43,488 bases of DNA from Phoronis australis. Lineage: Eukaryota; Animalia; Phoronida. The DNA lies in contig NMRA01000928.1 in NCBI GenBank assembly GCA_002633005.1, positions 1 through 43,488 of the forward strand. Reading direction: 5' to 3'. The notes under the pieces are model-generated. The model was not told the origin of the DNA. It worked only from the letters and a program-made list of their open reading frames with translations, and did no database searches. Position numbers and translations under genes: made by a program. Positions 4,411 to 42,435 of this stretch are shown in pieces. Positions within the stretch are counted from its first letter, which is position 1; every line of letters begins with the position of its first letter.

Positions 4411-5647
4411 ACGAATAACACCTACACAGTACCCTTAGTGGTTTATATGTCACCATCAATGGAATTGATCATAGTGTGTTCTGGAAGGGCAAACTGTTCG
4501 GAAACTGATAGACGGCATTTGATGCACCCACATCCCACATATACATGTATATATGCGTGCATATTGTTGCATATTGTCGTCACTCTGTCGGGCCACTGAG
4601 CGTTATGTTGTTCGAGTTGACAGTTCGATATCTCGAAATCAATGGAAGTATTTTGAGGAGATTTGGCACAAGGATATAGGGCATCATTACGTGCAACTCA
4701 ACAATCTGACTCGCCCGCTGGCGTCAGGGGGCGTGACGTTTTCAGTATTTTGAGGGTGTGATGGCTTTTGGATGATATCTGGAGAACAGATCGACGGATT
4801 TCAATGAAGCTTGACGAAGAAATATGTAAGATCAATGCGCCGGCACCATTTAATTTTCAGGCGAATGCGATTACTTCGGCACATCCTAGTAGCCGTTTTG
4901 TTCTCGGGGGATGCATTTCATCTGTTATTTTTGGGGAATATAGTACTTGATGATATCTTGAGAACCGATTGGCGGATTTCAATAAAAATTGACACAGAAG
5001 TATGTCATGAAAATGCACAAGCACCATTTGATTTTCTTGGCCATGTTGTGTGGCAGTGTTTCCGGGTTTTATGAGGAGAAGTCAACGACCTCAGATTCTA
5101 CTGTGCGACGTGGGAAAATCTCAAATCCCAACGAAATCGACGCTTTGAGTACCAAAGTCGGACAATTAATCCCTCTTAATGGGTTTTAGACTTCGTGCTG
5201 AATTCCAAGTTTTATATTACTGTCATTTTTCCTAGATTCGTTAGCTATGATTCACAGTTGCCCCATTTATTTTAAGAAATCAGCGTATTTACTACAACAG
5301 CAGTCAGCACACATCAAAGACGCGCTTAAGTTATAACATAAAGTAAACGGACAGAAGTTGCAATTGTTCAGCAAAAATCGGGTGAGATCGGTGAAATACG
5401 CGCTACCAGAGAATGTGTTTGTCTGAGCTCCATGTTCATTCGTTGGCGGGAGGAATTGGTAATGAATATCCACTTACGGGGAGGAATAAAAGGATTTCGT
5501 CAGCCGATTTACTTAGTCTTTTTACCGTCTTAATCGGTCACTTTGTATACGGTCGATCTTACCTCGCCAATAGGTGTCTCGTTTACCTGTGAGGAAGGGT
5601 GAAAAACGACGCAGCAACGTCAGTCGTTCTGAAGAGTGTGTGCCGTT

Positions 5648-6019
5648 ATGGTGTGGTGTATCGTTCCCGCTTGCACGAACTATGAATCTGCGAGGAAAGC
5701 GCGTATATCGTTTTTTCGATTTCCTCGATAGCCATTAATGCTTCAAAAGCGGCTCTCTGCAGTGAAGAATGGAAAGCACGCCGTTAATACCAAGTATGAG
5801 GCCGTGGAACCTGCCCATGCGTGTGGCCGTCATCTCGACCACAGTGATTCCACTGACAAATGCTGGCTTACCAAACAGCTCACGCCAGGGCAGAAACAGA
5901 GACTGAAGCTGAAGCCAGATACTGTACTTGGTGTGCTTCTATTCGGAAGGAAGGAGACAAAGAAACACAGGTCAGCTGTTGATCAGTTTTTGATAATGGA
6001 GAATTATAGTTGGCTATGA
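5648..6019 (+). pseudogene. THAP zinc-finger N-terminus of a Kolobok transposase (premature stop, catalytic domain deleted)
   Basis: MVWCIVPACTN...ISFFRFPR*(5729-5731)...ACGRHL...RLKLKPDTV matches the THAP C2CH signature (CxVPxC, FxFP, CxxH, LKxDAVP-like). Confidence 0.78.
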
Positions 6020-6090
6020 AAACATAAACAACTACAATTAGTTTAAGGCATGAGAACATAGCGTTTTACATGAAATGTTTGAAGACTTAC

Positions 6091-6513
6091 ACGCTCGTCA
6101 GGCTTCTGTTTCGACCTCTGGGTATAGGATGTTTTCGCCAGTTCATTTCCCTGCCCTAAAAACGTGGTTAGCACACCTCTTTTTAGATGCGATGCAAAAT
6201 CCGGATGCTCAGTGAGACACATCTGCGCATCTCCAAGAAGGCGTTTCACTTGCGGAATTTCGTGGCAGCAAACGCAAGGGTCAGTCTTTTCCATTATGAT
6301 CGTGCAGTTAGCGCACTGATACCATGACAAGTCATCCAAACGGTTTGCGGAACTCTCCGTACGTTCAGTTGTCAGTGCACGTTCACGCCGCCTCTCTAGT
6401 ATTTCTTGATCAGTGTATTCCGGTTTGAACTAATAGCCTGTGAAACCTAATGATCGACCAGTGAAGTTTTCTTCGGATGAGCACTCGTGTATGTCGGGAA
6501 TGCAAGTTGCCAT
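6091..6513 (-). pseudogene. KolX / P2RX7 intracellular (ballast) Cys-rich domain-like pseudogene, exon 1
   Basis: MAT...GY*FKPEYTDQE...RLDDLSWYQCANC...CVCCHEIPQV...CLTEHPDF, with a GTAAGT donor at 6090-6085 on the minus strand. Confidence 0.78.
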
Positions 6514-8173
6514 GGTGACGTTTATGATTTTGCGTTTTGTTTCAAAATGATTTGTTCTCGCCTTAACCAATGCTTATATAAAACTGAAACAAAGCCTGTC
6601 TCTTAGATATAATTTGTGACGCCTTTGGAGTGTTCGTGAGTGCAAATGTTTTGAGAAGCCAGCAATGAATAAATCATTGCATAACCGGCTTTTGATGCAA
6701 TGAAGGTAATTGATCGGGCACCGAGGCCGTGTGAGCGCATGCTACATCAGAGCTTGCTGACAGAAATCTGATGTAAAACAATAACTTAATTTTATGTCCT
6801 ATGGTCAGATGTTAGGGGAATCCTTGTAGGTATACATATATATTATTTGAATCACTATTACTGTACAACTTTTTCCCTGACGTTTCTGTGGAAGGGGAAA
6901 CTGACTTTGCAGCCCCCCACGAGAAAATATATTTGCAGTTTCGCAACTAATTCACCAAAATAGTCAAATGCACGTTGTTTCTTTGGCTCGTTATTATAGC
7001 CTTTTTGTGGCCTGAAGTCTAGTTTCTAAGTTTGGCTAGTTTATGTTCATGATGCCAGTCCGGCGACGACGGGCCTGATCGGCTTCCGAGCCAGTGGCTG
7101 GGATAGCAACTGTTTTGTGAACTTAGAGCTGAAAAAATCACGTGCCTAAAATGACAACACACAGCTATGTTCTCCTGTTTGTATTTCACGGAAGAATATT
7201 TCGAAATTATCACCGAACACACCCCAAACTCCTGTGAATGATCATGGGCAATTGGTCTACCAAACTTTGTGAGCTACAGTACTTTCAAATACCTATAAAT
7301 CCGTGACAGTGAATTAAAACAACACAGAACAGAACTCGATGAAATTGTAAAGATTTTACATCGAATTTTGATGAATTTAAGCGATACGCCAGTAAGCTTG
7401 TAGTAAACTGCTGAACAGACTGGCTTCGAAACTGTGACGTCATTTGTTACTTTCAACTTCTTTGCCTGTCGCCAGTTGTCAGGTAAAACAACTGGGCTTG
7501 CTGTTATCGAGTGGAACTATTCGATCGCATTTGATACAAAATAGGTTGTGTTTTTGAGTGTCATTCTCCTTTAAGAGGTACGCGTAAGATTCCGAGAATG
7601 GGGCACGGCACGACCGTATAACTTTTTTGTCTACGATTTCTACGTCCGATCGGCAACATCACAATTCAGTTTTCGAAACATCAGATTTGAGTTGGCGACA
7701 TAAGATTTTTGCCAGCTCGCCAAATGCGACTTGACGTTAACCTAAGGTCGAGCAACTGGAACCGATTGAATAATTTCATTGAACGTTGGCATAAAGGTCT
7801 TTCATTTGATATTTTGGTGGATTCAAATACTTCAGCGCCATGTTGTGTTTAAGAGTTTTTGGATTATGTGTAGAGAACTGGTTAAAAGATTTCCATGAAA
7901 GTTAACTCAGAGGTATCTGATGGCAGTGCAATTGCACTCTGTAATTTCTATGCACATTCAATCACTTCAGAATCTGTAGTGGATATTTTGTTTTCGGTAA
8001 GGGATTTGTTGTTTGGAGAAAAGCATTTGTGGATAATATCTAGGGATCCGATTTTTGAATTTCACAAAGTTGAACCATCAGATTGCGCCAGCTCCACTGG
8101 ATTTTCATGCGGATTCAGCTACAGCAGCGCCTACTAATAGCCATTTTGTGCGAGAACGTTTCTGGATGACGTG

Positions 8174-8417
8174 CATGCGCACATCCAAAGGAGGCTCGAT
8201 CGACCCCCCATTTCGCGAAGTGGGCAAAAAAGGTCAATCTCAGAGAAATTAAGTCTCCGAAAAAAGTGGAAAACGCAAGAAAAGTCCTTTTAAAACCAAG
8301 AACCAGCAAAATTCGGGTGATGTACAATTCATTGCTCTGAACATACCAAGTGAATCTTAGTAAAAGGTCCACATTCTCAAAATTTGAGCCCCCGTTTTTA
8401 GGCTGGGAGCGTGCATA
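8174..8417 (+). mobile_element. hAT-like MITE, copy 1 of a ~250-bp family (CATGCGCGCACCC termini)
   Basis: Termini catgcgcacatcc...gggagcgtgcata. The internal cgaagtgggcaaaaa(a)ggtc and gagccc motifs are shared with 11961-12200 and 41531-41792. Confidence 0.65.
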
Positions 8418-10190
8418 ACTGGAGAACCGGTTGAAGGATGTTAGTGAATGTTGCTGAAGGGCTTGGGATATGACAATGTGCCGACATCAATAAATTTTCG
8501 GGCGCATTCAAACGACTGAAGCACCTCCAAGGAAAAGGAGCATTTTAAATGTTGTTTGGAGGAAAAAAACTTTCCAGATGATATCTAGAGAAATGTTAGA
8601 CTGATATCCGAGCGGATTCAACTACATGTAGTAATGCCCTCCATATTTGTTTTTCTGTGAGAGTGTTTCGGGATGATATGTAAAGGAATTCAACGAGAGT
8701 TGACAGACAGATATGTGATGGCAATGCAGCAGCAACATTAAATTTTCGAGCTCATTCGACCACTGCAGCACCTCCTAGTGGGATTTTCAATAGTTGTTTG
8801 GAAGAAGATGTTTGCTGGATGATATCCAGAGGAGTGATTGACGGATTGACACATGTTCATGATGTCAGTGCTCGGGCACAGTATTACTTTGGGCGGATTC
8901 GACCACTATATATTATAGAATAATTGTGGGCTGTCTGGTTGTACGAGATGTGCTCAGGCCAGTCGGTTGGGACCAATGTTATGGAATCCTTTCCAGATAT
9001 CTTGAGACTTGATCAACGGATGTTAATAAAACTTCACACAGAGGTATGTGATATCAATGCTGTGGGACCATTAGATTTTCTGGCAACTTCAGCTGTTTGC
9101 CGGGGTGAATAGCATTTCAGGATGATATCAAGAAAAAAGATTGGTGCATTTGAATGTCACTTAACACAGGTTTGTGATGTCAATGCGCTTCCATCATTAC
9201 ATTTCGTATGGATTCAACTACTTCAGCATCTCCTGTTGGCCCCTAGCATCATATTGTTTGAGGTGCACCGTGGGGGCATATCAACGCCCCAATGTTGCTC
9301 TTGTATACTAACAAAAAACTAGTTGACACTCGTGCGTGAGCCCTTGTCGTTCCAATTGCCCATTCATCTGGTGAGATCAATAGGGCACAAAACTGAGTCG
9401 CAAGCTCGATCATGTCGTCTTGCAGTGTACCTTGTCTCATTAATACAAGTGTTTTAGTTCGTCATTCTTTTAAGTAACTCACTACATAAACAAGCCTAAC
9501 ACAGTGGTTTTGTATTATCATGATAATGCATGTGGATCTTTTTTTAACTTGTATTGACTGTTTGTGTATGGTGGCTTTTAGTGTAGCAAACTATATTGTC
9601 CAATATGGCGCTCGGATTGCCAATAGAACGGACGGAACCAAAATGGGATGGAAATGCAAAAAATGGGAAAAAAGGCGTTTGAAATTAGCGCAATTGTATG
9701 ATTGATTTAATAGCCCGCCATCAAATTGTTGGGAATGCCAGTTTTTGAACTGGAAAATTATGTAATATCAAAGCAGCAGTGTGGAATGAGAGACACTTTC
9801 GGGTGCTACATTTACACGTATGTACGTGTTTACGTGCAATTTAAATTTCTACTTGTTTGTGTGTGCAATCTGGGAACACAAAGCGATAACAAATCCGGCC
9901 TTCCCATCATAACAATTTTTCCGATGTCTCCTACTTCCTTCCCGTTCTCGTCCTTGCTTCCTGTTTCTCGCCCATCCTTCCCATTTTTGTGTGTGTCCCT
10001 CTCATTGACAGTCCGAACCTATTGTGGATGATAAATCCCCAGTAGTTAATGTATTTATGCTTATCAAAATGTCTACCACAATGTTGTTTCAGAAATTTAA
10101 CTTCAAGCACAAATGTAACTAGAAAAGTCTCACAAAACGGTGAGATTAATGAAAACAACATTCTGCATGGATTATTTTGCTTCTTTTCAG

Positions 10191-13384: not shown

Positions 13385-15840
13385 NGCATACCAGAGTTTG
13401 TAGTCACGTAAATGTGATAATGTTTTAATTGACCGGACTGCTTTAATGTGTTGAACATGGTTTTCTACTGCTTTATGCCGTCAGTGAACCTTGATTATTG
13501 TGAGTTTCTTAAGCCTACCACACACTACATATAGAGATATGGAGGTCATCAATTTCCCTTACAGGCTCAATAGGAAATGTACACGGGTTCCTCTTGATAA
13601 AGGATTGATTTCTTTGGACAATGTCTGTTTTATTTTTAAAGGATTTTGGTCTATGGATTTCTTATTATGTCGGCTTAAGAGAATTTTTATGGATTTTGAG
13701 TACCCAAGTTTTAGGGTATTGGCTTTTAAGCTAACAAATCATATCCGTTAATTTTGTGTTTTGATGTTTTGTTGTGATTCACCTTGTGTTTGCCTTGAAA
13801 CAAGAAAATTAGTTGTCACCGTTTTTAGCTATGTCAACAGTGTCACTTAAGAATGCACAATTTGACGTTTAAAAGCTCGCCAATATTTGGATCTCGATTG
13901 GACAGTTGCATTTTTCTAGATGACGATTGTGTTATGTTGTTGGGAATGCGAAACAATTTTAGTTCATGTAAATCAACTGATGAATTCATGTTTACCGTTT
14001 TTCCTCGAAGTCACTTTTTACACTTGTTTGTGTTTTTTGTGTTTTGTACATCATTGTGAAATTTGATGTCGCGGGCTATTGTTTAAAACTTTAATGATGA
14101 AAAAGCCAAAATGAACATTTTCAGGTTGATTCATCTATTGTTTGAAATAAATAAAACATTTCAAATGTTTGATGAGATAGTGAACATCGTAGGACAACGA
14201 CTGCTTTGCGGCCTTTTATCAAACGGCGCCGAACCCCATTAAGGCATGCATGTAGCGTTTGTAATTCTGGGTCCGGTTACAGAAGAGTTATTTGATGAAT
14301 AGCAGCGATGGTGTCGCATAATACTATGTACGTTTCACGTGGCTGCACTTAATGGGCTTCACTAGTTTGGCCCTTTCAACCACCCAAGACAGGGTGGTCT
14401 CTAAGCCAGAAGTCGTTGTCGAGAACCAATCAGATGTTTTGGCCTAGTTACCCGGCTAAATCGACGAAGCCAATCAGGTGCAGCCGATGTAGTTGACGTC
14501 ATACAACAGTCAATTTCTCCGCCGGATAAGTTTTGAAGTTTTATGCAACCCAGCTGTGATGTTTTCATGCTTCTTAGCATAGTTTTTACATGTAGATGTG
14601 CTGTGATACACTTCCGTTTTTAATAAATTCGTTCAAGGAATGAGTTTGTGGTTTTGTTTTTTTTAAGTAATTTATATGTTTATTTTCTCATATACCATAT
14701 TCTAGGAAATGATAAGACGTGAGAAACCCCAGATACACAAAAAAGTGCAATTAACCCCATGTCATTTGTGGTGCATCACACGTGTGCAGGCATTATGGTT
14801 GAGCCAACCGCACGAAACTCCTGAGGTAAAACACGAGAGTCCTGTTTTCGATCAGCGGGTTCTTCGAGCTTCAGCTTGTCTCCTTTAAGGAAACGAACAA
14901 ATTTTTCCATTTTCCATGTTGTATATGTTGTAGGCATTTAAGAGCAATTCCATATAAAAACCAGATGGTGGGCTATATATGCAAAATCACCAATTTTTTT
15001 GAAACTTAGCACATCAGCTGGCCTTGTCAAAAGAAACCTCAGCCTGACTTTTTAAGTTTCCGAGTTGTTTTTTTAACCCTTTTTACGACCACTTTGTACT
15101 TTTTCCGAAAAATAGCAAATAATAGTACTTGGAAGTAGGTAACTTTTGGTCAGCAACAACACATCATCGCTTCACGCTATAGAAAAAAATAATTATATAG
15201 CAGAAAGAAGAAAGAAAAACGTACAAGAAAAACTAGTTCGGATGGATTTTTTGATTTTTGATGTCCTCCCATTTTAGCCTACAAAAATATCATTTTCACT
15301 GCTTATTATTAAGGCCATGTTTACGCATTTTATCACTCTCCCAAATCTATATCGGATTCTTTTGGAACATGAGTTAACTTCCATCTGTTACTGCTGTCTT
15401 TGTTCAGCCCAACGCAAAAATAAAAAATCTTGTCCCTGTATATGAGCATGAAAAAGTCCTCTAAAACTAATAGTTCATACTAAAACTAATCAAGATCTTC
15501 GAGATCACACGTGAAAAAAGGACGGTGGATACGAGGAGAAGTGTCGTGTTATTGCACATACAAAGTGTCACGCAATGCTTCCTGTACTACACAAAAGCGG
15601 CCGAGCATGGTGGCAGTGCGCCAGTGGAATTTGCAATTTCAGAAAAATAACAGGTACGGATATTTACGATTGAAAGCATAATACTTTCAGTGATATCCAA
15701 GATACCGGCTTTCCAAACCAGTATTTAAGCAATTGGGTGTTGTTGCGACTTACCAGCTAAAAGTTTCACAATATGTAAGTTCCGGTCATGCGGCGGACTC
15801 AAAACCTCACTTACTTGTAAACATGGTGGTATCTGCTACC

Positions 15841-15910
15841 CAGCGTCGTCGTCAGCTAGGAGTCCATCTTCATCGTGGGTTTCGACCTTGACCTAGAACC
15901 CTCTCCGATG
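15841..15910 (-). ncRNA. Candidate hammerhead ribozyme with non-canonical (pseudoknotted) strand order in the retrotransposon 3' UTR
   Basis: Sense RNA CAUCG-gaga-GGGU-U^CUAGG-ucaag-GUC-GAAA-CCC-a-CGAUG-aagauggacu-CCUAG-CUGACGA-c-GAC. It has the cores CUGANGA, GAAA and NUH, stem I CUAGG/CCUAG, stem II GAC/GUC and stem III GGGU/ACCC plus CAUCG/CGAUG. Confidence 0.65.
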
Positions 15911-15929
15911 GTAGGTCTCTGAAGGCTGA

Positions 15930-18900
15930 TCAGACCTCCAGCCGACGCTGGGGTTGCCATTTGTTCTCACGCTGTAACCACAGCCACACGGTTGCTTCCT
16001 CCGCTGCTCTTACAGTAGACTTAAACATATCAGCTCGCCCTTTTGATGAAATGCCCAGTAGCTTCGTCATCCGCCACATGCTTCCAGCAATAAACCCTCG
16101 ACATCCAACTTCTATGGGGAGACAGAAGCATTTCCAGCCATTCGCTGCACATTCCTGCGATAGCTCTGCGTACTTGAGTTGTTTCCTCTCGTGAGCCTCT
16201 TGCACCCTAGTCTCCCACGGCACCGTTAACTCGATCAAAGTCACTATCTTCTTGCTGTCTGCCCACAACACTATGTCTGGTCGTAACTGGGTTACTGCAA
16301 TATGGCTTGGGAATGAACCCCTAGTTACCACATCCGTCACCATCTTCCAGTCGACAGCCATTCCTAGAATACCTGAATCACGCCTCTTAGTGGATACCCC
16401 GCCTTTGTTGAATTGAATGAGTGCTTTACCAGAGTTAGTCGCCTTCCTTCTTTCCAGATCTAAAACATGTGCAATACACTTGAGAATCTTATCATGGCGC
16501 CAAGTGTACTTCCCTGAGGTGAGAGCTTCTCTACAGCTGGATAGAACGTGTTCTAAGGTACACCGCTTGCCACAGCCCCTACAGCTGTCATCCTCAGTTT
16601 TGCCCCACGTTCGAAGATTTACAGGTGTTGGGAGAGTGTCATATATGGAACCAAGTAAAAAGCCCAATCTGAATTGGTCTGAAGACAGAAGGTCTTTACC
16701 CGTTATCCTTCTGCTGTTCACTCCTTCCCATGATGTCCATGCGCCCTGTTTCCTCAGTCCGACCGCTTCAGCATACCTTCTCTCGTTCTCCTGGGATCTA
16801 ACTTCGTCCAAAACCATTTTGCGCCTCTCTTTGCCCGTTGACAACTTCCACCTCTTCCCCGGAACCATTCCCAATCCCTGTCTTCCATGGCAGACGGTTC
16901 CCACGATATCTTTATGCCGTAACCTGCTCTCTGCCTCCTCCACTGCTACAGCAGCCTTCCACTTTCTTCCAGAATCTACCGATAATTCACTCTCTCTGAT
17001 CATCTCATCTCTCGAGTTCCGCAGAGTCAATAATGTTCTGCACTTTATCACCTTGAACTCCTCCACAATCGATGTCACAGGCAGAGAAACTGCGCCTCCT
17101 TTGATGTATAAGCCGAGTCTTGCAAAACTTGGTGGGACACCCAACCACTTTCTTAACCATCTGCTCACCATCCTTTCCATTTTCTCTGCAGTTGAAATTG
17201 AGAAATCGTACATTGTCAGTGGCCACATAACTTTAGGGAAAAGTCCAAACTGGTAGCACCAGACTTTGAATCTGCCCGGGAGACCGCTCTTCTCAATCTT
17301 GATCAAATTGTCACTCAGCTCTTTGATGGCTGCCTTTACATGCTCCACATCTTTCAAAGACCCGCTGTAGAACTTCCCTAAGTACTTAACTGGTTTTCTG
17401 CTCACAGATGGAATGGCCTCTGAACCTATCTTGAACGTATGGTGTGGGTTGACTTTTCCCTTAACAATGACAAGGCTACGGGACTTCTCCACCTTGAAAC
17501 TCATGCGTGCCCAATTAGCCAGCTCGCCCAGTGTCTTGACCACCCAAGCGGCACCTACCGCAAACCCTGTCGTAATCGTCAAATCATCCACAAATGCTCT
17601 GCAAGGTGGCATCCTTTTACCCTGCAACAAAGGTCCTCTGCACTCTTTACTAGCCCGCTTGATGATGACATTCATAGCCATGATGAAAAGGATGATCGAT
17701 ATGGTGCACCCTGTCATTATCCCCTTCTCGAGCGGCTGCCAACCTGTAGTGAAGTCGTTGACTGTGAACCTCATATAAGTCCCACGGAAGTAACTTGTAA
17801 TGAGATCTCGAAGTTCTCTAGGGATATGGTAGGTCTCCATTGCCAATTCAATTAGTGCATGGGGCATCGATCCATAGGCATTTGCCATGTCCAACCATAC
17901 CACTGCTAAATCAGCCTTGTTTCGCTTAGCATCTTTAATGAGCTCTGTTATGGCGCTATTATGCTCCAGACACCCTGCATATCCAGGAATTCCACCCTTC
18001 TGTACTGTTGGATCCACAAACTTGTTGCTCAGGAGATAACTCGTCATCCTGGCTGAAATGACTGCAAAGAAGATCTTCCCTTCCACATCTAGAAGCGAGA
18101 TGGGACGAAAATCACCTATCCTGATGGCTTCCTTCACCTTCGGGATATACACCCCTTCTGCTTTACCCCAAGTGTCAGGCAGAATCTTCTGTTTCCATAT
18201 AACTCTCTGAAGCTTTCACAGACGCTTCAACAGCCTTGGACACTTCTTATACACTTGATAAGGCAGACCCGACGGCCCTGGGGCTGACCCTGATCTTGAC
18301 TTTTCTATGACATTCTTCACCTCTGAGAACTTGATGTCCCCCATTTCCAAGGCTACACTTGGTGCATCCTCAACATCCAGCCAATCGAAGTCCGCCAACT
18401 GTGCATTCCTGGCCCCGTCACTGTGAACGTCCTTCAGATGGTTTTCCAGCTCCTCCTGTGTACACTTCAGACGCCCACTGGCCTCCTTCACCAGAATGCC
18501 CTTTACAAACTTGAAAGGGTTAGCCATAAACCTCTCTCTTGTGCGTGTACGCTTGGCTCTCTTCTTCCTCAGACGTTCAGCTTTGCTTAATCTCAAAAGC
18601 CCAGATCTGAACTCGAACCGAAGCTGTGCCAAATCTTCCTTCTCCTGCTGAACAGCCTTGTTCCACAACTTCTTCATATGTCGCAACTCCTGCCTGATTT
18701 GAGAAATCTCTATCTGCCTTCTACTTGGGCCCGCTGGTTCTCTGGGTTTTCTTCTCTCCTCTTCCCCAAATCTATCTTTGCAAATCGAGTAAACCAACTG
18801 AGTCATCGTTCCCATCTTCTTCTAAGCAGAACCCACCAGCGTTACCTCAACGATTGAGTCAATGTCCTCATCTAGTTGTTTCCATTCCTTCTCTGCTGCA

Positions 18901-19343
18901 CCCTTTGGCCACTCCAGCTTCTCCTTGTGTGGAAAATCGTGGACAGCTCTTGTTGGTTCCTGGGGCCTTGGGTAGCTGGTAGCTTCTTTAACTGGTGTTT
19001 ATCCGAGCAGCTGTGACATAGACTGTAGAGTGAACACAGCCCTCTGCTCTCTTTCTTCCAGGAATACCTCGTCAGTGGTGACTGCTGACATCTCTACTAT
19101 TGAAGCTTGAGTCTGTGTCTGGGCCAAAGCATAAGTCGCATCAGCCTCTTTCTCTACACTGGCATTGAATACAGTAGCTCTGTGGTTTCCTCCCCGGCTA
19201 CTACCTTCATTCGTCTGACTAGAAGTACTTGCTGTACCATCTAAGCGCTGCCGTTGAAGACATTTCATCTTCCCCTGTTGTATTCTGACACCTCGTGCAT
19301 TCTTGCATACTTTGCCACAAACACAAACTCTCGTGTTGTCCAT
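15930..19343 (-). pseudogene. RT-RLE polyprotein (1137 codons) with three in-frame nonsense codons
   Basis: N-terminal zinc finger CVCGKVCKNARGVRIQ..KMKC; RT motifs APGPSG, FRPISLL, QKGG, WLDMANAYGS, GIMTGCTIS, AFVDDL, KYLG; CCHC knuckle CRGCGKRCTLEHVLSSC; RHD; RLE RPDIV...IELTVPWE...ERKQLKY. ORFs 18999-19355, 18216-18815 and 15930-18152 share one frame, broken only by TAA 19001-18999, TAG 18824-18822 and TGA 18218-18216. Confidence 0.92.
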
Positions 19344-19859
19344 ATTCAATCTCACTGTCCTTGTTCGTTGCCGTGTCAGTTTCTTGAAGGTATGCTAGGT
19401 TTAGTGTATGATGCATTTCTACGCAACACTTCAAAAAACTGCATTCTGTTTGAAGAAAACAAGAGCTACTGAAACGCAAAGTCTTTTTATTTTGCTCAGT
19501 ACACATGTCCAAGATAGACATTTCTCAAAACTAGATAATCACTCCTATGAAAATCTCAGTAGTTTCAAGAGAATCAATCATGTAAAAAGTATGCTTTACC
19601 AGTCTCAAAATGAACATAAAACAAAAACGCTAGTAAAAAGTGACAGAAGATTTCAATGTTGACCATCAGTGGCTTGGATTATTTTCCCCAAACAGCCACC
19701 ATTCAAATCTCTCCCCCATGGAATCCCCTAATTTGCGTCATCTTCCATTTTTTCAATTTCGCCCAGGGTGGACCCCAGTCCCCTAGCTACGATAATGATG
19801 ACCACAACAACATCGTAAGAATAGACAACAACTAAACATGTTCATAATTTCCTACAGTT

Positions 19860-22679
19860 TATGATGATAACTCATTCATGACTTCAAGCTCCAACTCATT
19901 CATTGAGGCAAACTCGTGGGCAGCAGCAGCATCAGCATCTTCATTATTCTGAATATTTCCGATTCGAGACGCGGCAACCATACGGGAAAAATTCCAGCAA
20001 TCTGCTACTCCGACAGCCACTCTTCAGAGGAGAAAACTTTGCTTTGCTTATTCCTGGCTTCTCGCATCATCTTTACAACCTCAGCTGGCTGTTGTTTTCT
20101 GCCTGACTGTTCACCTTCAGAAAATATATCGCTGGGTTAAGTCTTTACCTTCTCAGAGAAGCGGACTGCTTTTCTAGTACTTTTCAGGGCCCAATCCTGC
20201 GGCGACTTGATCAACAAGGTAAACGGCAGACAACTCAGGTGATGATACAGCTGTGGTAGTAGATAAAATCTCAGATTGTCTTGAAATGTGGTCGAACTGA
20301 GTCTCGTTCTGGAGGGATGATGAATGAGCACCAACATCCAAGTGCTCATTAAGCTCAGCATCTGTAGGAAAAGATTTCGAGCACCCATAGAATGTGCATG
20401 TGAACTTCGTATGGCGTTCACGGGATACCAGCCCCGACTCAACCCTTGGAGTTGTAAAACACTCGAGTGTTGCAAGGTCAAGACTTTTCAGAGGCAATAG
20501 TTTGGCAATGACTTGTTGATGACAAGTTTTCCCTCCCCTACTCTATGGGCCTTCCATGCTCGAATGCCATCTGCGGAATATTCAGTTTGTCAGCAAACTT
20601 ATCCCTGGGATACTGTGCTTGGGAAGGACCTTTGGGGCATTCACACTATAGGACGACACCTAACAGGCTTTGACACCTCCTCTAGACTCTAGCGCATGTT
20701 TTAGGTCGACTGCTTTTTGAACGCTGTTGCCTTCATTGACGGAGTACTTGGCATGGGACTTCAAGGGTGCGAATTCCTGTCAAAATGTCTTTTCCCTTCT
20801 GACTTTCCCTGAAATCGAAGCGCAGAATGGAGATGCCGGTGTTACCAGATATGTAGAACAAATGAATCAGAAGGGCGGCTGAATGGTAACAATTGTTATT
20901 GCCTGCCTTAGCACATCTAGCGTTAAACAGCAAACAGTGAAAAAGTCTTGCTTGCAGGCATCTAGAGTATGGATGTAAGTATGTACCTGAAATACAATAA
21001 TTATGTAACTCAAATAGGTCAGCTAGTTTAAAGAACTACCTTATCATATCTTATTACCACCTAAACCGCAATCCCACCACTCAACTTCAAACATGTTTCG
21101 TCTCAACACGGTTATTATATCAGTAGCNTCATATCTAAATTTAGAAATTATGCTTCCGCGATATCACTTAACGTTTGATTTTACCACGCCGTCATTAATT
21201 CAACGTAAAGTTTTAGGCTGGTGTAATGTCACGCACTTCGTATTTGTAGGTTGATTCGATTTTATTTCCTTTCAATAGTTGAACAAAAGTTTATAAGCCG
21301 ATGTCAAGAACTGAGTTGCCAGTGGTGAACGAACAGCGAACAGTAAAATGTTTGTTTGGCCAAAGTTCACCCGTTAAGTCATAAAATGGTAATTGCCGAC
21401 CAAGGACACGCTTAATCCGAATTGATCGTCTACGCTAGGCGACCACTTAGCCGACCCAAGTGCCGACCACAGAGGCGGCTCAAGGGTGCGAATTCCTGTC
21501 AAAATGTCTTTTCCCTTCTGACTTTCCCTGAAATCGTAGCGCAGAATGGAGATGCCGGTGTTACCAGATATGTAGAACAAATGAATCAGAAGGGCGGCTG
21601 AATGGTAACAATTGTTATAACCTGCCTTAGCACATCTAGCGTTAAACAGCAAACAGTGAAAAAGTCTTGCTTGCAGGCATCTAGAGTATGGATGTAAGTA
21701 TGTACCTGAAATACAATAATTATGTAACTCAAAGAGGTCAGCTAGTTTAAAGAACTACCTTATTATATCTATATTACCACCTAAACCGCAATCCCACCAC
21801 TCAACTTCAAACATGTTTCGTCTCAACACGGTTATTATATCAGTAGCTCCTTCAAAACATTTCTACGGAGGGGGAAAATTTCCCCTTCACAGAGATATGA
21901 AAATCATTCATAAGTACAAAATGGCTTCAGTTAAAATGAAGGCTTGTGTGCAAAATCTACAAAGAGAAAAATAATGCATCACTGTCAAGCTTTTGTTGGG
22001 AAATGACAAAAAGACTAGATATCAAGTGCACACTCCCTGTATCTTGCACTGTTACAGTAAATCAATATACAAAAAGAGGTAAAGGCAACAACATTGTTCA
22101 TCACTGTCTTTCTGTTTAATATTGAGCACATCTGAGAATTACTTTGTAACACCGTGAATACTAATTGAGGATTTATTTTTACCTGATGGCTTTCACCTTT
22201 CTTTGTGATACAAGCCGCCACTTGCCGTGAGATCCTTTTTACCAAACCAGTCGGACTGTGCTTCACGGAAACTGATGGGTATGAACTTCATTGCAAAATC
22301 CATTACAACCAAAACTTGGTGTGGGGGTGAGAGATGACATCAGATCCTGTTTTGCTTGTTCCTGATTTATCCCTCTCACAATATCCTGTGTGCTCGTGAT
22401 AACAGCAAATCACTTTTTGTCTAAAACCAAGTCCAAACTTATGTCGATTTGTAAAATATATAACGGCGCATTTCCATTGGTTTGCCAGTCCAACCTCCTA
22501 TTTCCAGCTCTGGCAAGAATCAGCTGTAATTCCGATATACTTTCAAACTTCTGTAGCACTTTGCACGACCTCAGATGACTTCTGACGTCTTTAACACAGC
22601 TAATGAAGGCCACATTTACTCCGCGATCACACGTATGTAACGAAAATTGACCAAATGTACAAGAAGGAAACTCCTCCAT
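19860..22679 (-). pseudogene. Sola3-type DDE transposase pseudogene (spliced, frameshifted, internally deleted)
   Basis: N-terminus SCVKDVRSHL...SELQLILARAG; then IVRGINQEQAKQD...VLVVMDFAMKFIPISFREAQSDWFGKK; NNCYHS...RFDFRESQKGKD; ALESRGGVKAC...IPGISLL...GIRAWKAHRVGEGK; C2H2 CTFYGCSKSF...LNEHLDVGAH; WALKSTRKAVRFSEK...GEQSGRK...WLSE*QIAGIFSR. Confidence 0.8.
20761..21849. repeat. Near-identical ~370-bp direct duplication (20761-21127 and 21480-21847) of a Sola transposase exon and intron
   Basis: The copies differ by a handful of substitutions, and the first copy ends exactly at a single N (21128). Confidence 0.9.
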
Positions 22680-24702: not shown

Positions 24703-25338
24703 AAACGAAATGGACCCTACCTAGAAATGGTGTGTGACATAATTGAAGTTGAAGAATTATTACCCCCTCAATTTTCTGTGTAGCTTGATTCGCCAAATAA
24801 TCCCAATCAATAATTTTTATGAGCTATAAGTTTATTGGTCAGCAGTGAAACATGCTAAGACAAGTTTTCTTTTATTGAGAAGTCAGTAAATAGTTTACAA
24901 GAAAACAGGTGTTCTATAACTTGATAAAATATGAAAGCCAAAAACCTAGCATAAATGGAGCCACAGCTAGAATTCGTAAACATGTTTGTACAAACTTAGA
25001 CCAAAATCGCTTTCAAAATCTTCAATTTTTGAGCTCATCTACGAATTCAAAGTTGGTGCAGTACATATTCATGATGTCTAATGTAACTCTTAAAGACAAA
25101 ACAAATGGTCTTTAACTTGGTTAACTTTGAGAAGCAAACAGCTAACATGACTTTGGCCAATAATGAAATTCGCACAAATTCTACTACATAATCAAAACCA
25201 ATAAACTTATAGCTTCATAAAAGTTTTGATTGGGATTCTTTGGCGAATCAAGTTAACCTCCACACAGAAAATTGAGGGGGTAATAATTCTTCAACAATTA
25301 TGTCACACAACATTTCTAGGTAAGGTCCATTTCGTTTT
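24703..25338. repeat. ~140-bp imperfect inverted repeats (24703-24840 and 25197-25338), probably a foldback MITE
   Basis: aaacgaaatggacc.tacctagaaatg...aattattaccccctcaattttctgtgt...cttgattcgccaaa...gctataagtttattggt has its reverse complement about 360 bp downstream. Confidence 0.8.
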
Positions 25339-27241: not shown

Positions 27242-30216
27242 CTGATACGCCGTAAAATCTAACAATTTCGTAAAATGTAACAACTGTGGATGCAGATTAG
27301 GCCTACTTCTTGGTAACAAGGATGTTGATATTTAAATTCTTGTTTAGACGTGTACCAACTTCAAAAATCGATTATTTATGAACTATCAGAAAGCACTATA
27401 TAACTTTATCCATCTGTAGTTTGCCACCCACAAAGAACTGGACTCAGACCGCAATGTTTTACTTACATCTAAACGTGAGGAGGAAATCCATCGTGTAACC
27501 ATTTTTGCCTCTTGTTTTAAAAGAACTGGGGATCGTTCCACGATGATGTGTAAGTTCAAAAATTGCGTTAAGTTGAACTCCGGAGGCAGACATTTTTCGT
27601 GAACTAACGGCTGCGGTCACCGGTTCATTAGAATAGCTGGTAACGGACATACACTAAAACATACAACGACTTTATGTACTACGGGTCCCAATGTTCTTAT
27701 TTAAACCTAGTACTTTAAAAGAGTGAGTTGAACTAGGTTTCACTGAAAGTGGATAGTATGAAGCAAAAACGGCCAATGCCAAAGTCAGTGATGTTTAATA
27801 TGAGCTTTTAATTCAACGTATCAACGGGGCTAATAAACCAAATTCCCCTATCTGCGAGTTGCAACACAAAAATGGCGCCTCATGGGACACGTGACTTCAC
27901 GGCCATTAATAACAGAATGTCCAATCTTTTTGTTTATACACGTATGCCCTTCGAACTAACAAACATTAACCAAGTAGCAATTTTAATAGAAAAAGAAAGT
28001 GCATGCCTTTGTAGCCATCTTTTTTGGACTACTGTCCCTTTAAACTATCGACCCAGACCAAGCTTGGTCGAAATGATCATGTCATTTCAGAGTGCAAAAT
28101 ATTTTCTATTTCCCCGGCTAGGCATCCCATTTTTACGTNTATACACGTATGCCCTTCGAACTAACAAACATTAACCAAGTAGCAATTTTAATAGAAAAAG
28201 AAAGTGCATGCCTTTTTAACCATCTTTTTGGACTACTGGCCCTTTAAATTATCGACCCAGACCAGGCTTGGTCGAAATGATCATGTCATTTCAGAGTGCA
28301 AAATATTTTCTATTTACCCGGCTAGGCATCCCATTCTTACGTATACACGTCACAGTTTGACCTGTTGTTACTACTATTTCAGACAGGTTTGACATCAGAT
28401 ATTTCTCTCAGCCCGGCTTTTAAGCTGAATAAACACGCCACTGCGCCGCAACTTTTTAAACTATTGACTCGCCCGTCTCAAAGTCTATATTTGCTGTTGA
28501 ATTGAATAACTCCGTCAACTTCCCGGCAAATACATTTAAATGCGTACATATATTTCCTTCTACCGCAAATAGCCAAATACAATGTCATTGTTGTGCTTAC
28601 CAAGGGAATTGTGTTTACTGTAATGCAGGATACACAACTGGTTTATGGCCTGTGAGCGGCAACAAAAGATTGCAAGAACGCTTTAACAATAAAAAAATGT
28701 TACCTGATCCTGAAAGCCCCTTTCGTGTCGTGTTGAAATTGTACGCTATACATTTTTGACAATACCATAAAACTACTCATGTTAAAAACCATTGAAATCA
28801 CACAGGGTCACATCTATAAATTCGACCTGGCACATTTGATAGCATTTCTTTCACACACACACCGATAAAAAGGCGTCAGGTGTTAACAGTTTTCCTCCGT
28901 GTGCAAAATATCATGCAAACTCATGAAATATGACGTTGCTTTCGTAAAATGTAACAATGGTACATTTCTTGCAAGTGCATTCGACGTAAATTGTAACAAT
29001 CACATAAAATGTAACAACTTGTTACATTTTATGTGATTGTTACAATTTACTTAAAACAACCTGTTACATTTTAAGGGAGGCGTTGCAACGTAAAATGTAA
29101 CAATGACAGAAAATGTATTTGCTAAATTGTTACGTTTTACGGCGTATCAGGGCGCAGCCGTGATGTGAAGGCTAAGCTTGCCTGATGCAACCAAAGCTAG
29201 ACATATACTGTGTACATGTAGTTGGGCAATTGACGGGCAGTGGTGTCGTTTAAATAGCCGACAGTCGTCGACTGTTGCAATCATAGACATCTCAATACAT
29301 AGAGAGGGCGCGCGCCACTCAGATACGTGCAGCTCGCCTTGTCAATATGACGCCATATTGGAGAGTGCTACACAGGACAAAAATGGCGGAAAACACTGGG
29401 TGNTATACACGTCACAGTTTGACCTGTTGTTACTACTATTTCAGACAGGTTTGACATCAGATATTTCTCTCAGCCCGGCTTTTAAGCTGAATAAAACACG
29501 CCACTGCGTCGCCCCTTTTTAAACTATTGACTCGCCCGTCTCAAAGGCTATATTTGCTGTTGAATTGAATAACTCTGTCAACCTCTCGGCAAATACATTT
29601 AAATGCGTACATATATTTCCTTCTACCACAAATAGCCAAATACAATGTCATTGTTGTGCTTACGAAGGGAATTGTGTTTACTATAATGCAGGATATACAA
29701 CTGGTTTATGGCCTGTGAGTGTCGACAAAAGATTGCAAGAACGCTTTAACATTAAAAAAAAAAATGTTACCTGATCCTGGAAGCCACTTTCATGTCGTGT
29801 TGAAATTGTACGCTATACATTTTTGACAATACCATAAAACTACTCATGTTAAAAACCATTGAAATCACATAGGGTCACATCTATAAATTCGACCTGGCAC
29901 ATTTGATAGAATTTCTTTCACACACACCGATAAAAAAGGCGTCAGGTGTTAACGGTTCTCCTCCGTGTGCCAAATATCATGCAAACTCATGAATTATGAC
30001 GTTGCTTTCGTAAAATGTAACAATGGTACATTTCTCGCAAGTGCATTCGACGTAAATTGTAACAATCACATAAAATGTAACAACTTGTTACATTTTATGT
30101 GATTGTTACAATTTTCTTAAAACAACTCGTTACATTTTAAGGGAGGCGTTGCAACGTAAAATGTAACAATGACAGAAAATGTATTCACTAAATTCTTAGG
30201 TTTTACGGCGTATCAG
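27242..30216. mobile_element. Non-autonomous TIR DNA transposon with AAATGTAACA subterminal repeats (right end present twice, at 29150 and 30216)
   Basis: TIR CTGATACGCCGTAAAA ... TTTTACGGCGTATCAG. It splits a repeat whose uninterrupted paralogue lies at about 30772-30990. Confidence 0.75.
27935..28341. repeat. Tandem ~203-bp duplication joined by a single N (28139)
   Basis: 27935-28138 and 28140-28341 are near identical, and both begin tatacacgtatgccc. Confidence 0.92.
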
Positions 30217-30458
30217 GGCGCAGCCGTGATGTGATGGCTAAGCTTGCCTGATGCAACCAAAGATAGACATATACTGTGTACATGTAGTTGGGCAATTGGT
30301 GTCGTTTAAGTAGCCGACAGTCGTCGACTGTTGCAATCATAGACATCTTAATACATAGACCGGGCGCGCGCCACCCAGATACGTGCAGCTCGCGTTGTCA
30401 ATATGACGCCATATTGGAGAGTGCTACACAAGACAAAAATGGCGGAAAACACTGGGTG
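28342..30458. repeat. Tandem ~1.06-kb duplication joined by a single N (29403)
   Basis: 28342-29402 and 29404-30458 are near identical with scattered SNPs and indels, and both begin tatacacgtcacag. Confidence 0.92.
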
Positions 30459-31330
30459 CTAGCTCATTTTTGGGGGTCCTTTTTTGGTTTCTGCAGGACC
30501 CATTCCAGAGTGCAATTTGTCTTTCTTGGGTCATTCGGTGTTCAGTGCCGTACTATTGTTCGTTTCAAATGTTTTGGTTGGTACTGTACCTCGAATATCT
30601 AGTCTAGCTCATTTTTGGGCTCTTTGTAAGGCTCCCAGGGGTCACACCCAGAGTGCAGACAACGGCAGACGTCCATTTCTGTACATACTGAGGTGGACTT
30701 TAAATGCTCCCGTGGTCAGATGTTGGTACCTCGTTGATCTATGCTAAGTGCTCTGGGCTGCCGGTCTAAAATGCTTGCTTCTATCCAGCAGTCACTTGAC
30801 TTTGAAGTTGCCTCGCTTAGGTCGTCAGTCAACATACATTACAAGCCGTGACCTTAAGGAAATCGCGAGATCAAACAGGTTTAATAGTCTTGAATTTTTC
30901 GAGATAAACATTGGAAGATTTTATCCATAATATCATAATCTGTTGATCAATGCAGTGGGCCCAGCCGTGAAGCCTAAGCATGGCTGGTGATAAAAAAGGC
31001 TATGGTAACTACAAACACGTATTTTGACATTCAAAAATAAGGGGAGATTAAAGACTCAGATATTCACTATGAGCCGTGTGCCCTATGTCCCCGTTAAAGA
31101 GGAAGTTGCAAGGTCCAAGCCAATCTGAACAACAATATGGTCTAAATTCTAGGTTATATTTATCATTGCTATATTCTTAACATTAACTGAATTGTACCCC
31201 GCTATACAAAGTTATTTACATATTTAGTGTCGTGGTGTTGTAACGCCATCGTTGTAACGGATAATAGAAACGGCGCCATTTTCGTTCGTTACACATCTGG
31301 GACGTGGTGTTGGGGAACACAAAGGAAGCA

Positions 31331-41806: not shown

Positions 41807-42435
41807 GAGCCATGCAGAATGGTGAATGTTGGCCAATTCCCCTTTTGTCCACTGACGTCACAAGCATACTGGCGCCCCCAGTGAAGGCCCTGAGAACTCG
41901 TAACTAAACCGAGTTCATGAACCCGGTAGTATCCAGCCTAGCAACGGCCGAGCCAAGCTGGCGAACAGACTTGTATTTATTGTGGGACGTTGAGTATCGT
42001 TTTTTTTTCTAAAAACATAATGCATAGTATATAATAATGAATGGTATATAGTATCAATTAATTATGATTGAAAGATTCCTTTTTAGTCGAGCGTAAACGA
42101 GGCAATTTCGCGTGGGGATAAAACTTTGGCTTTGCCGTGTGTAACACAGAAGAACATTTGCATGGTGTTGCAGGATCGCGAGAATGAATATTCCAATTTT
42201 CTTAATTTATTGGAACAATATTAATTTTCTGAGAGTTTTGACATGCAACATTATTTAAAAAACACACTAAAACATAGCGACTCTGGAAAAATCATAAAAA
42301 AATACTTTAACCACAGTCGCCAGCATGCTTGTTTACGAGTTCTCAGGGCCTCCACCGGGGGCGCCAGTATGCTTGTGACGTCAGTGGACAAAAGGGGAAT
42401 TGGCCAACATTCACCATTCTCCAGGGCCATGGGCT
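41807..42435. mobile_element. MITE with ~90-bp near-perfect TIRs (possibly PIF/Harbinger-like)
   Basis: agaatggtgaatgttggccaattccccttttgtccactgacgtcacaagcatactggcgccccc...gagaactcgtaa (41816-41903) has its reverse complement at 42333-42420. A possible 3-bp TTG duplication flanks it. Confidence 0.82.

Follow-up and report, generated by a model that had tools for sequence, protein, structure and literature searches.

A conserved hammerhead-type RNA motif with a split core in the 3' region of HERO-type retrotransposons

An inactive HERO-type element in the Phoronis window

The window (the whole 43,488-nucleotide stretch analyzed, contig NMRA01000928.1 of Phoronis australis) contains, on its minus strand, a copy of a non-LTR retrotransposon of the restriction-like endonuclease (RLE) type. 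Its main features are:

15806..19390, minus strand: RLE non-LTR retrotransposon copy (HERO/Zebulon type), both boundaries approximate
15930..19343, minus strand: single ORF of 1137 codons, with three internal stop codons (at positions 19001, 18824 and 18218) and no frameshift
15806..15838, minus strand: terminal tail, including a UGU(A/U)-type motif like the one found ahead of the 3' boundary in relatives

The ORF (19343-15930) encodes an N-terminal zinc knuckle, a reverse transcriptase (RT), a CCHC finger and a PD-(D/E)xK endonuclease. The product matched RVT_1 (E 1e-17) and has the RPD...ELTVPWE and CCHC motifs. Relatives of the ORF occur in fish, lancelets, bivalves and sea urchin. The Tetraodon polyprotein Q7T1J8, which we take to be Zebulon of the HERO clade, is 43% identical to the window protein and nests among our comparison loci in a quick protein tree. 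The combination of RT and restriction-like endonuclease in one ORF is that expected of the HERO clade, and it agrees with the HERO-like host proposed in an earlier note on this DNA. HERO is described as one of five RLE clades (PMC4640811).

The window element is inactive and 5'-truncated, with the motif described below nearly intact. The three internal stops indicate that this copy is dead, and it lacks the 5' hairpin array found in full-length relatives. We placed its 3' boundary from relatives that end +90 to +96 nt past the predicted cut; inspection by eye revealed no target-site duplication around the copy.

For comparison we used 79 metagenome loci, the best 79 of at least 538 confirmed relatives, plus six loci from prokaryote assemblies. 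The tree of these loci was a quick version. Three of the six prokaryote-assembly matches are distant (25-29% identity) and have long 3' flanks without the motif; the other three stop inside the ORF. All six look like contamination. Among these assemblies, L080, L082 and L085 are HERO fragments in bacterial isolate assemblies, probably of eukaryotic origin. No relative of the element was found in viral contigs.

Extent and fold of the motif

The earlier note had described a hammerhead core at 15841-15910, lying wholly after the ORF stop. The core blocks are where it placed them on the minus strand, with CUGACGA at 15855-15849, GAAA at 15883-15880 and the NUH triplet GUU at 15899-15897. The full motif is larger (15952-15839, minus strand), pairs differently, and begins 20 nt upstream of the stop codon rather than after it. 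Its parts, in order along the RNA, are:

15943..15952, minus strand: helix A 5' strand, within the last ORF codons; 10/10 pairs with 15848-15839
15919..15941, minus strand: hairpin B, arms 15941-15935 and 15925-15919, loop palindrome UGAUCA at 15932-15927
15913..15917, minus strand: stem II strand 10.1-10.5 (GACCU), moved 5' of the cleavage site
15907..15911, minus strand: helix D 5' strand (CCAUC), counterpart of the type SGC clamp helix between stems I and II (PMC10085705)
15904..15906, minus strand: GGA side of the kink-turn-type loop
15897..15903, minus strand: stem III 5' strand (GAGGGU) and H17, with the triplet GUU; predicted cut between 15897 and 15896
15889..15896, minus strand: stem I 5' strand (CUAGG) and 3-nt linker UCA to stem II
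15875..15888, minus strand: stem II 3' strand (AGGUC), GAAA, stem III 3' strand (ACCCAC)
15864..15874, minus strand: GAU-GA-A side of the kink-turn-type loop and helix D 3' strand (GAUGG)
15849..15860, minus strand: stem I 3' strand (CCUAG) and core C3-A9 (CUGACGA)
15839..15848, minus strand: helix A 3' strand, starting straight after A9

The general order is thus A5', hairpin B, II5', D5', GGA, III5', NUH, I5' and the linker, followed by II3', GAAA, III3', NNN-GA-N, D3', I3', CUGANGA and A3'. Stem I, stem II and the D/III pair cross one another in the model. A9 leads directly into helix A, which is followed by hairpin B, and the end of B connects to G10.1; the core is thereby predicted to be interrupted at its center by a four-way junction. 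The non-circular, pseudoknotted strand order NUH, GAAA, CUGANGA that had been proposed was confirmed both in the sequence and in homologs, as was the short linker between stems I and II, and the predicted cut at 15897/15896 agrees with the revised model.

In the window copy, helix A and half of hairpin B (15952-15930) lie in the last codons, and the UGA of the loop palindrome UGAUCA is the ORF stop codon. Because of this overlap, a terminating ribosome would be expected to open the fold in the window family. In several relatives the ORF ends earlier.

Conservation and covariation of the motif

We searched with a descriptor consisting of the core and five helices (stems I-III and two further helices). 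It matched 52 of 83 3' regions (82 loci and the window). There were no matches in 838,700 nt of dinucleotide shuffles and a single match across the two strands of the window. Upstream and antisense sequence, 507,344 nt in all, gave only two matches, both of them upstream tandem copies. A second CGAAAC...CTGATGA at 13949-13983 (plus strand) of the window fails both the descriptor and the covariance model described next, and was treated as chance.

A covariance model was built from 43 non-redundant examples, and 42 of the 79 loci were in its training set. It matched 65/79 loci at E≤1 and 62 at E≤0.01, in every case on the sense strand and 3' of the ORF; this agrees with the occurrence in related HERO-like elements that the earlier note had suspected. 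Carriers of the motif are distributed over the entire quick tree. Ten of the 14 loci without a match have ≤133 nt beyond the ORF match. Two others (L024 and L063) belong to a long-UTR family in which the motif lies about 700 nt downstream in the relative L055; in these three loci the long 3' UTR carries repeated UAAUCC/GGAUUA stretches upstream of the ribozyme. The motif is absent from L028, a complete tandem unit, and from L031. L028 (3824 nt, 25-nt terminal overlap) has no Rfam ribozyme between its stop and the next ORF.

We tested stem covariation, a check the earlier note had called for, in a structure-blind MAFFT alignment of 43 non-redundant homologs. The core was kept, and stem I, the revised stem II and stem III covary. 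With controls that ignore relatedness, the revised model pairs 83.9% of cells compared to 59.2% in shuffles (0 of 500 shuffles reach this value), and its covariation score is 0.580 compared to 0.197. In the same 43-homolog alignment, sliding the helix partners gave at most 45.2% paired.

The individual helices fared differently from the smaller fold first proposed. Stem I (15896-15892/15860-15856), proposed as CUAGG/CCUAG, was confirmed, with 90.5% paired in homologs and two-sided changes at 5/5 pairs. Stem II, proposed as GAC/GUC, was not supported: it is 50.4% paired, and all three pairs occur together in only 4/43 homologs. The partner of GGUC is instead the upstream GACCU at 15917-15913; the resulting GACCU/AGGUC helix is 93.5% paired, with two-sided changes at 4/5 pairs. 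For stem III (92.5% paired; one A-A mismatch in the window copy), the core GGGU/ACCC held up, and the proposed extension CAUCG/CGAUG (56.3% paired) did not. The extension is better read as helix D, CCAUC/GAUGG (73.0% paired), joined to stem III through a GGA/GAUGAA loop. What had been taken for a single extra nucleotide between A9 and G10.1 is an insertion of two covarying helices, in which the strand after CUGACGA pairs with 15952-15943. This helix A has a pair probability of 0.95-1.0 in the window copy and is 79.4% paired in homologs. The gap between A9 and helix A is absent in 42/43 parses, made by a parser that penalized gaps.

U16.1, GAAA, U4/G5 and G8/A9 are invariant in 43/43 examples, positions for which the descriptor had selected, and H17 is U, C or A in all 43, the parser having excluded G. 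The catalytic residues and cleavage triplet are kept across proteins 33-52% identical to the query, while the helices vary freely. C3 and G8 form a pair in the active hammerhead fold. In the L014/L059 family (L014 = L059), found by a relaxed scan, U3 occurs together with A8, and since C3 and G8 pair in the active fold, this looks like a compensatory change that keeps the active-site pair.

General searches did not report the motif. Rfam gave no relevant family, hammerhead models included, for the window at E≤10 or for 20 loci at the gathering score. Single-sequence folding of 15835-15915 was uninformative, with a z of +0.82 in a scoring scheme that does not cover pseudoknots. The nested fold of the window copy prefers another pairing (-45.5 vs -37.8 kcal/mol for the non-knotted part of the model, pseudoknots being unscored).

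A kink-turn-type loop and a palindromic hairpin loop

The kink-turn consensus has a C-stem, a 3-nt bulge, tandem G-A/A-G pairs and an NC stem. By sequence, the loop between stem III and helix D fits this consensus in 31/43 examples; four more keep only the second A, and eight do not fit. From these sequences, the loop is predicted to be of kink-turn type and to tie stem III to helix D, the clamp of stems I and II. In L022, L035, L070, L074, L076 and L078 the loop is shortened or absent and the core is intact, which makes these loci natural controls.

The loop of hairpin B has a perfect 6-nt palindrome near its center in 29/43 examples, compared to a mean of 5.3 and a maximum of 14 in 2000 shuffles. 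There are seven kinds of palindrome: UGAUCA (20), UGGCCA (4), GACGUC (2), and UGUACA, UCAUGA, AGUACU and CCUAGG (once each). The 20 UGAUCA loops are alike by descent, and most of the palindromes share descent. In 15/29 the palindrome is half a base off center, with one extra base on the 5' side, so it is not a plain extension of the stem. GACG loops are found in 6/43 (two of them also counted as palindromes) and occur in four distinct groups of the quick tree, interspersed with UGAUCA carriers. Altogether 33/43 examples have a palindrome or GACG, and ten have neither.

The 6-nt palindrome of the HIV-1 DIS and the GACG tetraloops of MuLV are retroviral dimer contacts (PMC5874298). The hairpin B loop likewise has a 6-nt palindrome or GACG; unlike the retroviral loops described there, it sits inside the ribozyme motif of a non-LTR element. 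By this resemblance, the hairpin B loop is predicted to dimerize two ribozymes, in trans or between neighboring units. The ten examples with neither loop type and the shared descent of most palindromes speak against such a role.

Relationship to known ribozymes

The core (CUGANGA, GAAA and NUH) and the abutting, covarying stems I-III are those of a hammerhead. The order is site, GAAA, CUGANGA (S-G-C), which differs from the cyclic C-G-S order of types I, II and III. This scrambled order is real, as the earlier note had proposed, and it is already in print as type SGC (HRIMA-1 and variants), which cleaves in vitro at the site corresponding to the one predicted here (Eckert et al. 2023, PMC10085705). 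Type SGC typically has a 3-nt linker between stems I and II, requires its clamp helix for cleavage, and cleaves at rates of 0.007-0.19 per min (PMC10085705). The HERO motif shares with it the order, the short linker, the clamp helix (here helix D) and the full core.

There are also clear differences from type SGC. In type SGC, block C is intact. In the HERO motif it is split: the stem II strand lies 5' of the site, helices A and B lie between A9 and G10.1, and the strand following A9 pairs in helix A, not in stem II. The clamp helix of the HERO motif reaches stem III through the kink-turn-type loop, and the host is eukaryotic LINE DNA rather than the metatranscriptome circles reported for type SGC (PMC10085705). 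Topologically, SGC turns into the HERO motif by circular permutation: the ends of SGC are connected by the kink-turn-type loop, and a new opening is made between A9 and G10.1. The conserved, covarying RNA is, in its predicted structure, a complete hammerhead core in SGC order, opened between A9 and G10.1 and reclosed by two helices.

In the account of Eckert et al. block C is assumed never to be interrupted, no such RNA is reported from a known eukaryote genome, and the spacing from CUGAnGA to its stems is at most 1-2 nt in all published hammerheads (PMC10085705). The HERO motif interrupts the CUGAnGA block with two helices and so breaks this stated rule. With it, the range of non-circularly permuted ribozymes grows from metatranscriptome contigs of unassigned origin to include an entire clade of retrotransposons. 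The available portions of the main text and supplement of PMC10085705 do not mention a kink or k-turn, HERO is absent from that supplement, and 'retrotranspos' occurs in the references only.

Classical type I, II and III hammerheads in Penelope-like elements and retrozymes resemble the HERO motif in core, retroelement host and tandem layout, and provide precedents for dimeric action and circle formation (PMC6765202, PMC7229834). Unlike the HERO motif, they are circularly permuted three-way junctions without core pseudoknots (PMC6765202, PMC7229834). Retrozymes are non-autonomous, whereas the HERO host is autonomous; animal retrozymes are cut, ligated by RtcB and found as tandem copies (PMC7229834). 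The HDV-like ribozyme of R2 is likewise in an RLE non-LTR element and upstream of the element's 5' end when units are in tandem, but it belongs to another class and lies at the 5' end rather than within the 3' UTR (PMC3774820).

The HERO motif belongs to the hammerhead family, outside types I-III and strict SGC, and by analogy probably works like them. In the literature searched, with most subscription journals and Repbase Reports outside its scope, we found no published description of the split-core HERO motif; the features not found in print are the interruption of the core, the loop of kink-turn type, the loop resembling dimer sites, and the autonomous RLE LINE as host.

Tandem units, tails and 5' hairpin arrays

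HERO units often occur head to tail, although collapsed assemblies over-represent tandems. In short-tailed families the 5' hairpin array starts 91-118 nt after the cut. Where the tail gives way to flank, the boundary has a fixed position at +90 to +139 past the cut; compared with the tandem form, this is 3-6 nt short of the first hairpin. In 9/10 loci with sequence upstream of the 5' start, a ribozyme or tail is present there. L019 begins at the 5' hairpin, with an unrelated flank upstream. The L001 sequence extends from +2 past the cut through to +91 in the second tail, and L003, a single case, joins two units that are only 69% alike, both with UGGCCA loops.

In the L014 family the junction from tail to 5' end is spanned without differences in three data sets (X5, X12 and X15/X16), one contig goes round an entire unit, and four runs had no loose end at the 5' hairpins. 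Logan contigs of this family aligned to L014:1-700 were unbroken at the predicted cut and had no loose end there, contigs being unable to show RNA ends. A 5-fold higher depth over L014:1-214 in one RNA data set (filed twice) spans both sides of the cut and is thus no sign of cleavage. Among contig ends near the motif, 2/15 (L001 and L017) fall within 2 nt of the cut, compared to about 0.45 expected, which is a weak hint.

Full-length elements open with four to five short covarying hairpins that have GGAAAGA-type loops and UGAC spacers (L001:97, L002:2293, L004:2495, L011:3187, L014:220 and 13 more matches). These hairpins are likely protein-binding sites adjoining the start of reverse transcription.

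Proposed role and alternatives

The conserved active site and the SGC precedent argue that the motif self-cleaves, which we consider quite likely. It is somewhat less certain, and in our judgment a little better than an even chance, that self-cleavage cuts multimeric HERO transcripts into units with paired, rejoinable ends. The tandem context points to the cutting of multimers and not to the formation of the element's 3' end. Covariation, the invariant core, the U3-A8 change, the spread over 65/79 loci, the SGC and retrozyme precedents and the tandem context favor multimer cutting. Against it we count the intact Logan contigs, the small number of contig ends at the cut (2/15), the over-representation of tandems in collapsed assemblies, the flank of L019, the absence of the motif from L028 and L031, the competing nested fold, and the insert between A9 and G10.1, which, unlike anything in published hammerheads, may slow or stop catalysis.

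According to the proposed mechanism, the kink-turn-type loop would bend helix D back along stems III and II, clamping the far ends of stems I and II, while helices A and B would meet stem II and the core at a four-way junction. The cut would fall after the NUH triplet and turn read-through or tandem HERO transcripts into unit-length RNAs. After the cut, helices A, II, D and III, which span the predicted site and amount to about 25 bp in the window copy, would keep the strands together; this fits the earlier argument that the products must stay paired. The cut would then act as a nick, to be copied across or to be rejoined by the ribozyme or by an RtcB-type ligase, and because a nick can be copied across or resealed, the motif could be inherited though it lies inside the element. 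Two cuts on a tandem transcript would release a permuted unit that might then circularize. The proposed start of reverse transcription is at a constant position roughly 90-140 nt beyond the cut and 3-6 nt ahead of the 5' hairpin array; a reverse transcriptase that continued into the following unit would produce copies arranged head to tail. Where units are in tandem, some 100 nt separate the upstream ribozyme from the start of the next unit, and in R2 this is the place of the HDV ribozyme (PMC3774820). If this is true, a nick with paired products and a built-in dimer loop would be a new kind of LINE template preparation. The motif offers a testable mechanism for HERO tandem arrays and would make a compact scaffold for RNA circularization tools. 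A more tentative and rather doubtful extension is that HERO elements are autonomous LINEs replicating through a self-cut, religated circular RNA, produced by a new hammerhead architecture (split core, four-way junction and kink-turn) that would also pair two RNAs by retrovirus-style kissing loops; if so, both the tandem arrays and the joins between different families would be explained.

Two alternatives share the structure and differ from multimer cutting in the role they give it. In a linear cycle like that of R2, the active ribozyme of an upstream unit would free the downstream unit while the unit's own copy stays uncut or is nicked, and tandems would be due to the reverse transcriptase jumping from the end of one template to the next, or to new copies inserting at the ends of existing elements, with RNA dimers assisting. 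L019, which starts at the 5' hairpin on an unrelated flank, is what a linear template should produce; the L003 join of dissimilar units with UGGCCA loops, the extent of L001 and the R2 precedent of cleavage upstream of the junction (PMC3774820) fit as well. The unvarying junction and lack of loose ends at the 5' hairpins in the four L014-family runs, and the tail preceding 9/10 5' starts, do not, and we regard a linear cycle as unlikely. We give still less credence to a silent or tightly gated scaffold, a hammerhead-derived 3' UTR site for protein binding or dimerization that cuts rarely or never. The L014-family contigs, which cannot show RNA ends, have no cleavage signal, the core interruption is of a kind absent from known hammerheads, and an efficient cut within the template would be costly. 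However, the catalytic residues and triplet persist across proteins 33-52% identical while the helices turn over, and the U3-A8 change preserves the active-site pair.

That the resemblance is due to chance, or that the earlier, smaller fold is correct and stem II uses the strand following CUGANGA, seems to us extremely improbable. GAC/GUC is able to pair in the window copy; the descriptor found nothing in the 838,700 shuffled nt, the proposed stem II is about 50% paired with its three pairs together in 4/43, and covariation already refutes both ideas.

Other features of the loci and the window

In L020, L033, L039, L041, L067 and L079, tRNA-like A-box and B-box sequences lie between the ORF stop and the motif. 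ARAGORN found no full tRNA in these 3' UTRs, and the boxes are, by sequence, a possible internal Pol III promoter upstream of the ribozyme.

Elsewhere in the window, 4760-9200 consists of degenerate repeats with a spacing of about 178 nt and shorter, and its longest open frame is 123 aa. Long inverted arms (MITE-like) and tandem duplications (about 720, 205 and 1065 nt) are present at 24703-25337, 41809-42427, 20761-21847 and 27920-30461.
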